Assembly: GCA_964016885.1 (NCBI GenBank)
Contig: OZ024745.1
Coordinates: 37,944,001-38,008,000, forward strand
DNA from: Eledone cirrhosa
Taxonomy: Eukaryota
Reading direction: 5' to 3'
DNA length: 64,000 bases
Shown here piece by piece: positions 15,700 to 51,810 of the stretch. The position numbers were made by a program, and so were the translations under genes. Position 1 is the first letter of the stretch, and the number at the start of each line of letters is the position of its first letter. The notes beneath the pieces were generated by a model. That model did no database searches. It saw only the letters and a program-made list of their open reading frames with translations, and was not told where the DNA came from.

Positions 15700-16457
15700 T
15701 AGATAATTTAATATATCAACTAACATAAGCGCACAGATGTACGCTAATGTCAGCAAATACACAGGTTATGTCATAGTACCTAGGTGGTTCAATGCAGGAG
15801 GATGCAGAACAATAATATAAAAGACGTAAAATAAGAAAATTCTTTAAAAAAAGTTTTTAAAAAAAATTTTAACTTACTTACTTAAATTACTTACTTAAAT
15901 TTTCACTCCTTATTTTACGTCTTTTATATTATTGTTCTGCATCCTCCTGCATTGAACCACCTAGGTACTATGACATAACCTGTGTGTTTGCTGGCATTAG
16001 CGTACATCTGTGCGCTTATGTTAGTTGATATATTAAATTATCTATATTTATCTCCAAATCACTGATTTGTCGAGCAAACCTGCCAAAACCACTTCTAAAA
16101 AAATTTTTTTGGGGGTGTTAGTAGGCGTCTGTCATCTTACCATCCCATTCCTACTGACTAGCCTCTGTGTTACGTGATTGATTCTTTAGAATCGGCCACT
16201 TGACTAGAGGCAGTGAGGATTTCAGTGCATGGAATTCAGTCCCCGCTAGCTGTTCCATCTACCGAATTATTATTATTTTTATATGAGCCGCCAGTGTCCG
16301 CGCATTGCCTGGAGACTTAGCTGAGAATAGACTCCCTGATGACGCAATGAATTCTCGACAGTTAGATTATCCCATTGCAGAAACTAATTAGTTGGAGTGA
16401 AAATTTAAGTAAGTTAACATTTTTTTTAAAGAATTTTCTTATTTTACGTCTTTTATA
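15700..16457 (+). mobile_element. Non-coding HHR retroelement: inverted arm + 529-bp terminally redundant unit, in (TA)n
   Basis: 15700-15835 inverted to 15909-16045; cttattttacgtcttttatat repeated at 15909 and 16438; (TA)n on both sides; family member at 32150-32463 (-). Confidence 0.8.
16331..16398 (+). ncRNA. Type I hammerhead ribozyme
   Basis: actcc-CTGATGA-c-gcaatg...cattgc-a-GAAA-ctaattag-TT-ggagt; 5-bp stem I, 6-bp stem II, palindromic stem III. Confidence 0.8.
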
Positions 16458-16623
16458 TATATATATATATATATATATATATATATATATATATATATAT
16501 ATATATATATATACGCAGGTTTGACTGTGATTTAGTCAGGCAAGTTTATATTCGATGGAAGCTTTTTGTATATAAATGAAGAATTTTATTCCATTTAATT
16601 ACATCATTGCTGTTTTACATATT

Positions 16624-16752
16624 TCTTCTTCTTCTTCTTCTTCTTCTTCTTCTTCTTCTTCTTCTTCTTCTTCTTCTTCTTCTTCTTCTTCTTCTTCTTC
16701 TGAGAGGGTTGTGGGGGCAGAGTCCTCGAACACTCCTTCCAGCAGCTCCTGT
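16624..16752 (-). mobile_element. (AAG)n tail plus ~50-bp 3' end of a 5'-truncated LINE (RTE-like)
   Basis: Perfect (TCT)n 16624-16701 abutting a GC-rich segment reading RSCWKECSRTLPPQPS on the minus strand. Confidence 0.4.
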
Positions 16753-16788
16753 CAGAGACAACTGTCTCCAACTAATCTAGCTGGATTT

Positions 16789-47768: not shown

Positions 47769-47807
47769 ATATATATATATATATATATATATATATATAT
47801 ATATATA

Positions 47808-49625
47808 TAACAAGGAATTGTGGTAAGGAGCCAAATGGACCCTAACGCACCAGAGTACTCAATACCTAGGGTAGTAGAGTGGGAAATAGGAAAAAGTATG
47901 TCCCGACGGCAGAGCTCAAGCCGTTTCGACGGCTATTTCTGGACTAAATTAGAATGTTTAGCCTATTGAATAAATAGCCGAACTTTTCAAGGGGGTACTT
48001 CCTTATATGGGAAGATTGTAGTTGTCAAGAGGACTGGTTAAAATTTGTTGTAAACACAAATAAGTCTATCATGGCATTTGGTGGGAAGTAGGGGTGGCTG
48101 AACTTGCCTGTAGAACAATAGGGGAGTGAGTGGAGCGATCAGGCGTTGAAAGTGATATGTATACATCAGATTCTAGGGATAGTGTATTATTACAGGTTAA
48201 TAAGTTGAGAATAGAAAAAAACTTATAGAAATTACAAAACAGATACAAACTTATAGGGGTTTTTAACACATCTGCTATAAGTAGTTAGTAAAACGTATTC
48301 GGCCAATTCTATCTTAAAATATCAGGGGTGGGGGAACTGATGCTACAAGGCCCGATGGGCTGCATCGGGGTAGGCAAAAGGGGAAAGCAGGCGCGGAAGA
48401 AAATAGGGGGTGGAAGGAAGTGATAGGATGAGACAGGGGTAAGAAGGAGACAAAGAGGAAAAGAAAAGAGATACAACATTTACCCATTTAAGCTGGGGTT
48501 TCTCCTAACTTATTCGGCAAGTGTGTGTTTGTGTGTGAGTGGGGGGGGGGGGTATCAACCCTTGCCTACCCACCCGGATCGTTATAGGGTTAGGGCGAGG
48601 TAAGTCCTACGCAATTTGTGTTTGCATGCGGGTACCAGTTCATCTTTCTTGTTTAGGAGTTGGTCCTTCGAAAACAGCATTTGTAATGTTTCCTCCGAGC
48701 ATAAGTTACACGGACGGCGTCCTCCCGTGTAAGACTTAGCTCTGGACACTAAGCTCCAAGTGAGATTGTAGCTTATATGTTATCTTGGAGGTCCCAGATG
48801 TGGCCCGAAAGTGTAGTGGCATGTCGCCGAACCGGGTTTCGGAAAGTGCGTCGGTGTTGGTAGAGCCGGGTCTTGAAGTCACACGCGGTTAATCCTATAT
48901 AAGCTTTGTTGGAGGTGTCCGTCCTCACGTTGCACTGGTAGATCACGTTACATTCTCGGCATTTGTTGTTGAGGGGGCACGTGGATCTATCAGGGCAGTT
49001 ACACATCCTGGTCGGCTCTCCACTGATGTCTAGGTTATTTCTTCCATAGGGGTTGAGTTTTTTGTTGTTTGAGGAGACGATGTTTTGTGCGAAGTTAGGT
49101 GTGGTGCTGTAGGAGAGTTTGATAGTGTTTTGTTGATTATGTTGTGGTAGCGGTGTTGTAGTGGGAAGTGTTTTTCGAGGAGTCTAAAGAAGATTTTCCC
49201 GATAGGTGTTGCCACCTCGGCATTGTGGGGAGGATTGAACACGTTACGTTGCGTGAGCAGCGGTGTCGCCTGCTGGTTCCGCTAAGGGAAGCTGGATAAA
49301 AGGATATTTCCTCCCGGAAGCCACTCTGCTTGAGGGCCTGGTTGTAATGAGGAGCATGTTCGTCAAATATCTGCTCATTAGTGGACAAACGAGATATGCG
49401 GAGGGAGGTGTTTTTAACCAGGTTATTGGTGATGTTTCTAGGATGGTTAGAGCGGCGGTGGATGTAATGCAGGTTGTCGTTTTGTTTCCTGTATGGGTAG
49501 TGCAGACCAAAGGGTACAACCACAGTAGTACAGATCGAGTAGTACAGACCGGGTCCGTAAACAACGAATCATCTTCTTCCGGGACTGGGGATTTAAAATC
49601 ACCTTACAAACGTCCCTAAAAAACA
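47808..49625 (-). mobile_element. 5'-truncated Penelope-like element (RT thumb + GIY-YIG + pLTR) with internal 5' inversion
   Basis: YIHRRSNHP, FNPPH, CNCPDRSTCPLNNKCRECNVIYQC...AYIGLT...RLYQH on the minus strand; 3' end runs into (TA)n at 47766-47808. Confidence 0.9.
47902..47994 (-). ncRNA. Type I hammerhead ribozyme in the pLTR, U3-A8 core variant
   Basis: ccc-TTGAAAA-gtt-cggctattt...aaatagccg-tc-GAAA-cggc(ttgagctct)gccg-TC-ggg. Confidence 0.75.
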
Positions 49626-50782
49626 CATAGTATATTCTTGCACCTGTATTATGTTAAACGGCACGTTATTGCTACTGGATTTTAGTCTTCAATTTTATTA
49701 TTATTACTATATATATATATATATATATATATATATATATATATATATATATATATATATACATTTACATATATATGGTCTTTATTCTCTCTCGTTCACA
49801 ATTCACCGAACTTATATTCATGGAAATCTGGGACTTGACTCTTTCTTCCTCACTTTTCGTTGCATTACCATCTTTGTTTGTTTGGAAGATCACTGATGAA
49901 GGACTAAGTTTATTTAAATATATATATACACACACACACACACACACACACATATATATATATATATATATATATATATATATATATATATATATATATA
50001 TATATATATATATATATACATATATACATATATATATATATACATATATATATATATATATATATATATATATATACATATATATATATATATATATATA
50101 TATACATATATGTGTGTATATTTCCCACATCTTATGTTAACTACTTTCCCATTTTGACGCTATAGTCACTTATATATTATGGGATACTGTTGGCTTCTTG
50201 CTACAATTCTTTCTATATATATATATAATATATGTTTATACTATATGTTTATATACAAATATACAATGAAGGTATGAGAGACTTGCTATCAAGGAAAAGA
50301 AAATATTACCTGTATGAAAAAATTATTTTTTTTATTTTTTGCTGTGTCATAGATATCTCAGTATCGTTGAGAATGCCTGAGAGCTGTTTCAAGAATCGTT
50401 AATGTCTTATGAGTGACATTCACTCAACTGAGTTGAAAAAAAGATTAGAACCTATATAAATTTCATGTGATGAGATTTGCAGGTCACTATTTTGATGCCT
50501 CTTGTTTTCTGGGGGTACGGTCAAATTTGGACTTTGAATCATTGGGTAGCGCTTTTGTTCCGAGTATGAACATAAATAAATAACATATTTCTTCTCCTCC
50601 CAATTGAGCACACTGCATTCCTTTTTCCTTTCCTTTTTACATCTACGGATACTGCTACATTTACATATACGTGGAAACATATACATATACATATATATAT
50701 ATATATATATATATATATATATATATATATATATATATATATATATATATATATATATATATATATATATATATATATATAT

Positions 50783-51810
50783 ATATTAAGTGTAAGGAAT
50801 TCTTTTACAATGGAATTAGCTCGAAAGGAAATATTCCTGAGCCGTGTATAAAAGTAATATATATGAGTAATATATATGTTGAAACAGATACCAACATATC
50901 TGTATTTATATTGCAAAAGAAAGTTAGCCAGACTGAAGAATATTAATTATTATACCACAGTTCGTCCACATCGATTTAAAATAATAATAATAATAAATCG
51001 ACAAAAACTAGTTGTGCTGCCAAATGGCAATGATGTTTATACATATTTAAATTTCAAAGTCAAACCTGTTCAGTAGATAATTTAAATATGTATAAACATC
51101 ATTGCCATTTGGCAGCACAACTAGTTTTTGTCGATTTATTATTATTATTATTTTAAATCGATGTGGACGAACTGTGGTATAATAATTAATATTCTTCAGT
51201 CTGGCTAACTTTCTTTTGCAATATAAATACAGATATGTTGGTATCTGTTTCAACATATATATTACTCATATATATTACTTTTATACACGGCTCAGGAATA
51301 TTTCCTTTCGAGCTAATTCCATTGTAAAAGAATTCCTTACACTTAATATAACGGCTCTTCGTCGAGCTAAATTTCGCCTCATATATACGACTGTTATTTC
51401 TAGCAGTACGGTTATGAGACTAGCCTGAATCTGTGAACCCATGTGCGTCACACAGTCTTTTAAATTATTTAGAAGTGAAGCTTATCAATTGTCTCTGGAT
51501 GTTTACTGAGGAGAGCAGTGGCATGATATTCCTACACTTATATCCATCTCGAAACATGTTTGGATTTTGAGGTTTAAACTTATCTACTGAACAGGTTTGA
51601 CTTTGAAATTTAAATATGTATAAACATCATTGCCATTTGGCAGCACAACTAGTTTTTGTCGATTTATTATTATTATTATTTTAAATCGATGTGGACGAAC
51701 TGTGGTATAATAATTAATATTCTTCAGTCTGGCTAACTTTCTTTTGCAATATAAATACAGATATGTTGGTATCTGTTTCAACATATATATTACTCATATA
51801 TATTACTTTT
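50783..51810 (+). mobile_element. Young non-coding HHR retroelement: inverted arm + ~1.4 copies of a 528-bp unit in (TA)n
   Basis: 50783-51052 inverted to 51080-51350 (apparently identical); tttaaatatg repeated at 51081 and 51609; HHR-like ttta-CTGAGGA-gag...ctc-GAAA-catg-TT-tgga at 51501-51565. Confidence 0.8.

Follow-up and report, generated by a model that had tools for sequence, protein, structure and literature searches.

A 64,000-nucleotide window of contig OZ024745.1 of Eledone cirrhosa (positions 37,944,001 to 38,008,000) contains five flagged inserts, E1 to E5, which a sequence-only reading had proposed to be non-coding, retrozyme-like units that bear hammerhead ribozymes and are mobilized by Penelope-like elements (PLEs). 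All positions given here are within this window. The proposal is supported in part, by the absence of open reading frames (ORFs), by hammerhead motifs, and by an end motif of Hydra-type PLEs in E1, E2, and E5. E1 to E5 are probably ORF-less parasites of Hydra-type PLEs, copied from a partly cleaved multimeric template, with copying started beside hairpin boxes (boxes 1 and 2 below). E3 and E4 probably belong to this class of parasite as well, without an established helper clade. The inserts and a second copy of the E1 family are as follows.

15700..15909, minus strand: inverted arm of E1; the inner end, 15909, is base +1 past the predicted ribozyme cut, and the outer end lies just before box 2.
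15909..16457, plus strand: main arm of E1, 1.03 ORF-less units of 529 bp; it stops just short of box 1, where TATA is shared with (TA)n as microhomology.
32152..32463, minus strand: E1b, a second, dispersed copy of the E1 family, ending near box 2.
16789..17756, plus strand: E2, 1.52 units of 593 bp, with a 26-bp inverted piece on the left.
35555..36227, both strands: E3, a fold-back with a minus arm of 1.18 units of 328 bp and a plus arm with a broken ribozyme copy.
42794..43858, minus strand: E4, 1.52 units of 701 bp without an inverted arm; GTTGAGT lies 66 nt inside the 3' end.
50782..51086, minus strand: inverted arm of E5, identical to the main arm; it runs from a point just short of box 2 back to +19 past the predicted cut.
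51079..51813, plus strand: main arm of E5, 1.39 units of 528 bp, ending just before box 1.

Self-alignment, ORF, and cross-alignment checks recovered all five sequence-unrelated, ORF-less inserts with their direct repeats at the places first reported, E1 spanning 15700-16457 and E5 spanning 50782-51813. The direct repeats are identical at 299/308 positions in E2, 352/364 in E4, and 207/207 in E5. No ATG-started ORF longer than 66 amino acids occurs in any doubled unit, a search of E1 to E5 for PLE protein remnants found none, and the inserts cannot be aligned with each other apart from short AT-rich matches. Most inserts had been said to carry an inverted arm; this arm is long in E1, E3, and E5 (140/143, 278/295, and 272/272 identical, respectively) but measures just 26 bp in E2 and is missing from E4. 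The outer ends have 2 to 4 nt of TA in common with the (TA)n beside them; the left end of E2 adjoins a (TTC)n-tailed fragment instead of (TA)n, which corrects the original description. The flanks of E3 beyond (TA)n (35526-35564 and 36229-36269) are inverted copies of each other (38/39), and E3 may have landed in the center of an older hairpin. The main arms of E1 (15909) and E5 (51079), which are unrelated in sequence, start at +45 and +47 from their own predicted cuts.

Hammerheads were sought with a type I descriptor that allowed a long stem II, using 60 local dinucleotide shuffles as the control. This retrieved eight sites in the window (E1, E1b, E2, E3, two in E4, and two in PLE-A, a coding neighbor described below), compared with a shuffle mean of 0.05 and a maximum of 1. 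The motif of E5 was overlooked by both descriptors and was located by motif search.

16331..16398, plus strand: E1 type I hammerhead, core at 16336, with a 37-nt stem II region, a 10-nt palindromic stem III, and a predicted cut after 16393.
Within 32152..32463, minus strand: E1b ribozyme, with a loop II 14 nt larger and a compensatory stem II pair.
17001 and 17594, plus strand: E2 ribozymes with a U3-A8 core; the first has a broken GAAA, and the second has a 61-nt stem II region and a predicted cut after 17675.
Cores at 35757 (minus arm) and 36077 (plus arm): E3 ribozymes; the first is of canonical size with a predicted cut after 35726, and the second has a broken GAAA.
Cores at 43800 and 43099, minus strand: E4 ribozymes, with a 95-nt stem II region.
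Core at 51506, plus strand: weak E5 ribozyme, predicted cut after 51560.

Across the five units, the stem II regions measure 15, 37, 38, 61, and 95 nt. The idea of one type I hammerhead per unit stands to the extent that all five units contain the motif, but E1 and E5 have a single motif in the whole insertion, E3 carries one in each arm, and E2 and E4 carry two. The ribozyme of E5 is weak (its stem I has five pairs including three G-U, and the fold predicted for it lacks the ribozyme structure). Two consecutive intact-looking ribozymes, the "active" criterion of Li 2026, are found among the five window inserts in E4 alone; one of the two in E2 is broken, and E1, E3, and E5 have one per arm. 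The U3-A8 core is common to E2 and to PLE-B, a second coding neighbor; it was considered as a novelty and set aside, having been reported previously in Schistosoma PLEs (PMC4209133).

The coding PLEs of the window, which had been put forward as candidate helper families (those at 38889 and 47808), are present as remnants.

38890..42765, plus strand: PLE-A, a 5'-truncated, frameshifted Hydra-type PLE with a reverse transcriptase (RT)/endonuclease (EN) remnant at 40031-41642 and a 1140-bp inverted arm.
Core at 42502 and box at 42660-42700, plus strand: ribozyme of PLE-A, with a 92-nt stem II region, and its box.
47808..49505, minus strand: PLE-B, a 5'-truncated, frameshifted Hydra-type PLE with a U3-A8 ribozyme core at 47991 and a predicted cut after 47905.
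3655..4089, minus strand: PLE-C, the 3' end of a third Hydra-type PLE in (TA)n, with a short Hydra-type ribozyme and a predicted cut after 3690.

PLE-A, PLE-B, and PLE-C match 34 RT-EN proteins that were found with the RT fragment; the EN fragment used alone as a query found no relative, and Pfam does not recognize the PLE fragments of the window. In PLE-A and PLE-B the GIY-YIG EN is C-terminal and has a CxCx5C linker, CCHH is absent, and CxxC and CxH surround the catalytic E and N, with Ser replacing one Cys of the EN CxxC in PLE-A. The region of the RWK and DKT motifs is truncated in both, and these motifs are present in the database relatives. Both elements are inserted in (TA)n and carry a 3' hammerhead. 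The C-terminal EN, the CxCx5C linker, the absence of CCHH, and the CxxC and CxH motifs are the EN features that define the Hydra clade, and nearly all Hydra families insert in (TA)n and carry hammerheads (PMC8557442). By these sequence features the coding PLEs of the window are assigned to the Hydra clade. Naiad identity was rejected, with the EN being C-terminal rather than N-terminal and hammerheads being present. As to their proposed role, the Hydra clade and the end motif shared with E1, E2, and E5 hold up, whereas a helper family is not indicated: PLE-A and PLE-B are truncated and frameshifted and have only motifs in common with the units, and therefore point to a helper clade and not to a family. 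A further Hydra RT fragment lies at 10124-10426 on the minus strand.

The end motif was surveyed among Hydra-type PLE loci, of which 77 were fetched from metagenomes (from the best 80 of 521 confirmed stretches, partly redundant and on short-read contigs); viral contigs held no Hydra relative. A hammerhead follows the ORF in 44 of the 63 loci with enough sequence, with stem II regions of 10 to 29 nt. Between the ribozyme and the ATG sits a hairpin box, GCTC-loop-(G/A)THGAGCAC. Two boxes are found in 33/49 5' untranslated regions (UTRs), one in 14/49, and none in 2/49, the boxes being 55 to 83 nt apart, and the ATG follows the last box by 11 to 45 nt in 43 of 47 cases. The string GTYGAGY occurs in 39/49 of these 5' UTRs versus 1.3 in shuffles, and anchoring on the 3' half (GAGC) alone retrieves GCTC upstream in 66/71. 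The order in a coding Hydra element is ribozyme, box 1, box 2, ATG and ORF, 3' UTR, and ribozyme. Among the 34 loci with both a 5' and a 3' copy, 15 continue into another ORF, 8 end with the contig, and 11 diverge; 8 of these 11 informative 3' ends diverge 2 to 12 nt before a box. By eye, boxes are seen in the consensus sequences of Hydra-1_Ajap, Hydra-2_Ajap, and Hydra-2_Amil; Hydra-1_Obim shows 5' box halves only, the box of Hydra-1_Crog is degenerate, and none is evident in Hydra-1_Amil. The boxes are not mentioned in the consulted portions of PMC8557442, and no description of the twin box, of its role, or of a named helper clade for retrozymes was found in the open-access literature (Repbase and subscription papers lay outside this scope). 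The twin box in Hydra-type loci and the Hydra-clade identity of the coding PLEs described here are new.

The ends of the window insertions were scored with matrices built from the Hydra-type loci, with rank expressed as the share of unit positions. Seven of 11 outer ends fall in the top 5.5% (the inverted arm of E1, E2, both ends of E5, PLE-A, and two further insertions, E6 and E7); for the flagged inserts the count is four of eight.

15934..15957, plus strand: E1 box 1, GTTC...GAAC, a compensatory form of GCTC...GAGC that folds as a hairpin; top 23.5%.
16051..16075, plus strand: E1 box 2, TCTCC...GTCGAGC; top 1.3%; no ORF follows (first ATG at +153, 6 amino acids).
17167..17226, plus strand: E2 box, a long-loop GCTCT...AGAGC that lies 1 nt past the point equivalent to the 3' end of the insertion; top 0.4%.
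51290-51313 and 51354-51367, plus strand: E5 twin boxes, GCTC...GAGC, at a spacing (64 nt) like that of coding Hydra elements; top 5.5% and 0.9%.

The order of parts in E1 and E5 matches that of coding Hydra elements minus the ORF, and E2 has a single long-loop box; in none of the three does an ORF follow the last box. E5 is the clearest case, with its main arm ending before box 1 and its inverted arm before box 2, 65 nt apart. The outer ends of E1 are offset by 119 nt, and those of PLE-A, E6, E7, and E3 differ by approximately 47 to 108 nt, with no second box visible there. Variants that keep the pairing, namely ACTC/GAGT (E6 and E7), GTTC/GAAC (E1), and TCTC/GAGA (L057), favor a hairpin as the conserved feature, although the events are few. 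An earlier rule by which all inverted arms end before a single "near" site was dropped once the second box had been found.

These ends bear on a more mundane explanation, in which E2 to E5 are not independent but one-off partial tandems, in which a template jump linked two 3' ends of a coding PLE, a short one that had been truncated on its 5' side and a longer one. Among PLEs, both partial tandems and inverted truncated copies are usual (PMC8557442), neither E3 nor E4 has ends that score as boxes, and PLE-A and PLE-B have 3' UTRs of 800 to 1000 bp, a length that could accommodate a "unit," which makes this a real competitor. Against it, the sequence past the redundancy point in E2 and E5 is a box with no ORF after it, versus the ATG that follows the last box within 11 to 45 nt in nearly all coding Hydra cases, and the explanation fails for E1, as set out next. 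We regard it as improbable.

The E1 segment 15911-16450 was compared with public sequencing runs (4 of 18 listed runs were used, nine with small shares being among those set aside), in which it is high-copy under three organism labels. Run X1 yielded 1417 contigs matching E1, with all 30 bins covered; a 401-nt contig of run X5 (organism B, a different label) spans 15944-16344 with 21 differences and no gap; and run X6 gave an overlapping chain. In the reduced-representation run X16, 7800/12,467,656 reads fit E1, read depth over E1 not being a copy number, and 11 reads with three starts close the unit by running from 16450 back to 15926. Every link of the E1 cycle is thereby seen in other copies (including E1b) with no intervening ORF. 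E1 is a high-copy, ORF-less, closed unit and therefore not a one-off fragment of a coding element. The objection that such a unit may be just the pseudo-long terminal repeat (pLTR) of a coding PLE consequently fails for E1, the unit on which it was examined, and E1 forms a dispersed multi-copy family independent of a coding element, a statement that applies to E1 alone. Loop II of this family tolerates 14-nt insertions, and E1b retains a stem II pair through a double change. None of the 18 listed runs with E1 is an RNA run, which says nothing on expression, and the exact E1 ribozyme pattern had no match in metagenome contigs. Peaks of read ends in X16 (16036/16039, 16102, 16221, 16265, and 16353) were discarded as biology, as they coincide with AATT restriction sites (16221 via a common variant), and so was the fall in depth after 16353, also an AATT restriction site effect. 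At 16294, 10 contigs share the flank of the E1 ribozyme but differ upstream, and at 16333, 238 reads share this flank and differ in stem II; the diverging sequences are candidate sister or coding partner families of E1.

The same reads inform on whether the redundancy arose at the DNA level, from a solo pLTR that underwent local tandem duplication or unequal crossover. In this reading the fold-backs would come from repair or from chimeric assembly. It has been proposed that solo pLTRs are amplified locally (10.64898/2026.07.22.740005), the arms of E5 are 100% identical, the flanks of E3 are also inverted, and the fold-back junctions of the window rest on the assembly and not on raw reads. However, the copies comprise non-integer numbers of units and stop beside boxes, with microhomology to TA, and the arms of E1, E3, E6, E7, and PLE-A diverge by 2 to 9% plus indels. 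Furthermore, the opposite-strand joint of another E1-family copy is found in three raw reads with two starts, not at a restriction site. An artifact is unlikely because most arms have diverged and because this joint is present in raw reads, and a DNA-level origin is altogether a very remote prospect.

The inverted arm of E1 stops at 15909, exactly at +1 after the predicted cut, and the other arm passes through an intact ribozyme. Because one arm stops at the cut while the other reads through, E1 fits better with a linear, partly cleaved multimer than with a circle. Arms that stop exactly at the predicted cut are found in 2 of the 13 insertions with a locatable cut, E1 and the following fold-back.

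21129..21260, plus strand: small PLE-B-family fold-back, in which both arms begin at +1 after the cut (21151 and 21149).

The same parasites with the same helper may instead have used a ligated circular monomer RNA that was copied more than once round, as in the published retrozyme model; the sequence-only reading had also considered a circular template. Every redundancy observed (1.03 to 1.52 units) fits such a template, the two intact-looking ribozymes of E4 could release a 701-nt monomer, and circles have been demonstrated for the retrozymes of coral, mussel, and axolotl (PMC7229834). The units are also unusually well folded as circles: the five monomers gave z scores of −4.1 to −6.5 (15 shuffles each), whereas none of the 22 control stretches scored, of 48 available, had a z of −4 or lower. 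These scores show structured RNA, but do not tell a circle from a linear RNA. A circle has no 5' end, yet the inverted arm of E1 stops at +1; E5 is very young but its ribozyme is weak, and the E1 and E5 insertions have a single ribozyme each. The circular template is, on balance, unlikely.

The linear route that we favor would operate as follows. A more-than-unit insertion would be transcribed into a multimer, of which the ribozyme would cut only part. The Hydra RT-endonuclease, probably as a dimer, would bind the hairpin boxes in trans and nick both (TA)n strands, and cDNA synthesis would start a few bases 5' of a box via the 2 to 4 nt of TA microhomology. If both nicks prime, one per box, two cDNAs would be joined head to head; in the resulting fold-back the outer ends would be offset by the distance between the boxes, the "tail." On arriving at a cut 5' end, a cDNA would stop at +1, and one that meets an uncut ribozyme would read on, giving the 1.03- to 1.5-unit redundancy that is able to seed the next round; E1 would correspond to one RNA with a cut 5' end plus one uncut ribozyme. 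Purified Poseidon PLE nicks and extends both strands, uses uncut RNA, is predicted to be a dimer, and initiates at two internal positions flanking the genomic tail (PMC11167929). A more specific version, in which the twin GCTC...GAGCAC hairpins are the cis signal of the Hydra clade, each placing one subunit of the RT-endonuclease dimer so that one partly self-cleaved RNA is primed twice from both (TA)n strands, is advanced tentatively, as an idea that could well prove wrong. Were it true, a single rule would account for the tail of PLEs, for fold-backs joined head to head, and for copies of more than one unit, and a ribozyme with two hairpins would be a complete minimal parasite, one that has radiated here into many families with oversized ribozymes evading standard searches.

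Several observations weigh against this interpretation. For the ribozymes, the covariance-model check that had been suggested for the hammerheads returned none: Rfam lists no hammerhead among the 150 matches listed, of 181, in the window, nor when E1/E2, E3, and E4 were scanned separately, the matches in each case being chance hits to hairpins or miRNAs alone. The isolated ribozymes fold no better than shuffles (z of 0 to −1.7), and the predicted folds of E4 and E5 do not adopt the ribozyme structure. In the remaining 11 of the 13 insertions whose cut can be located, the arms either pass through the ribozyme or end at some other point, as E5 does at +19. As for the boxes, both ends of E3, the end of E4, and the main-arm end of E1 score poorly with the Hydra matrix (top 23 to 61%), the scoring window was chosen after the ends had been seen, and the positions of the ends were read off the alignments by eye. 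Inverted arms occur in 10 of the 77 Hydra-type loci, and none is informative on one arm per box; the boxes could also be DNA promoter elements instead of RNA hairpins. No similarity was found between E1 to E5 and the termini of PLE-A, PLE-B, PLE-C, or the 77 Hydra-type loci, and independence from a coding copy was examined for E1 alone. Finally, Poseidon priming needed no homology and no RNA ends were detected at the cut (PMC11167929), and an antisense self-priming model exists for inverted junctions (PMC3846280).

The kind of element represented by E1 to E5 is itself known: animal non-LTR (long terminal repeat) retrozymes, PLE-type inverted arms, TA targeting, and the U3-A8 core have all been published, and the existence of such elements is unsurprising. 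Inverted arms, tails, and mobilization in trans are likewise in print (PMC3846280, PMC8557442). For animal non-LTR retrozymes, an origin from PLEs and mobilization by them have been proposed and lengths of 51 to 972 bp are published (10.64898/2026.07.22.740005), which contradicts the earlier view that the units are mostly longer than those described; unit length was accordingly dropped as a novelty. As in these retrozymes (PMC7229834; 10.64898/2026.07.22.740005), the units are non-coding, arranged head to tail, carry a type I hammerhead, have a GC content below 50%, and lack an LTR, primer binding site, and polypurine tract, with E3 being the nearest (328 bp, short stem II). They differ in presenting 1.03 to 1.5 units per insertion and not arrays, often with inverted arms, and in having stem II regions of 37 to 95 nt in four of the five; here a helper clade and a cis signal are indicated, and self-cleavage is a prediction from sequence and circular RNA a hypothesis. 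A plant LTR retrozyme, with a type III hammerhead in its LTRs and a 4-bp target site duplication, was rejected on the type I topology and the lack of LTR structure.

Like Hydra-clade PLEs (PMC8557442), the inserts have a (TA)n target, a 3' hammerhead with a palindromic stem III, tandem or inverted insertions, and, in E1 and E5, twin boxes, but their units have no ORF and their stem II is mostly longer than the 10 to 29 nt of the 44 Hydra-type loci. The Poseidon element of Anolis (PMC11167929) and the Penelope structures in Adineta (PMC3846280) share two internal initiation sites that give rise to the tail, nicking and extension of both strands, head-to-head inverted repeats, and a pLTR sufficient for mobilization in trans. 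Poseidon, however, starts within the ORF, at sites 30 to 40 nt apart, at an AC-rich stem-loop and without target homology (PMC11167929), whereas the predicted starts here precede two conserved non-coding hairpins, 55 to 83 nt apart (119 in E1), with TA microhomology. The non-autonomous Chlamys elements, MRC1 among them (PMC8557442), are also non-coding PLE derivatives that make pLTRs and head-to-tail copies, but they are algal, belong to another clade, and mostly lack hammerheads.

The autonomous element that moves retrozymes, and the formation of PLE tails and inverted ends, are stated to be open in the literature (PMC7229834, PMC8557442, 10.64898/2026.07.22.740005). Of the present findings, the box and the arms that stop at the predicted cut most deserve follow-up. 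A conserved hairpin of 20 to 30 nt at insertion ends, common to coding Hydra elements and ORF-less units, names a helper clade and provides a mutable signal for the existing in vitro PLE assay (PMC11167929). Moreover, ribozymes with a long stem II are missed by Rfam, and retrozyme counts in such genomes are therefore underestimates.

Further insertions of this type are found in the window.

11259..11473, plus strand: small PLE-B-family fold-back with its junction inside the stem II loop.
37706..38800, plus strand: E6, a further hammerhead family with two insertions (37706-37908 and a fold-back at 38392-38800); an ACTC...GAGT box lies 4 nt past the end point of the inverted arm.
44177..46248, plus strand: E7, a relative of E6 in fold-back form; its AT-rich interior of 1.5 kb has no ORF, and it carries an ACTC...GAGT box.

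The interior of E7 (44380-45930) has approximately 24% GC and no detected PLE ORF; E7 is either non-coding and longer than the other members or a strongly decayed member. Truncated hammerhead-like cores occur at 49895 (within 49676-49920) and at about 21470 on the minus strand (within 21360-21660). An inverted pair at 10577-10747 and 11683-11843 has sequence in common with 49676-49764, and the inverted repeat pairs 29196-29438/32837-33101 and 33057-33249/33681-33880 (76 to 85%) yielded no hammerhead. At least 10 hammerhead-bearing families are present in the 64 kb, a density for which there is no baseline.

Other repeats complete the window, in which no tRNA was found. An uninterrupted frame of 1056 amino acids with AP endonuclease and RT domains at 51972-55142 on the plus strand is an apparently intact long interspersed element, which we take to be RTE-like. 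At 59700-61800 on the plus strand, a decayed non-LTR element shows an RT match and, downstream of it, a Cys/His motif and a motif of the restriction-like endonuclease type; it is presumably R4/Dong-like. A dispersed 180-bp repeat, similar to a short interspersed element and presumably resembling octopus repeats, is present in approximately 12 copies with 83 to 95% identity, one of which interrupts a hammerhead-like motif at 10918; copies lie at the following positions.

1403-1586
10981-11170
15006-15192
19682-20080
24162-24344
34831-35020
36775-37157
46932-47080

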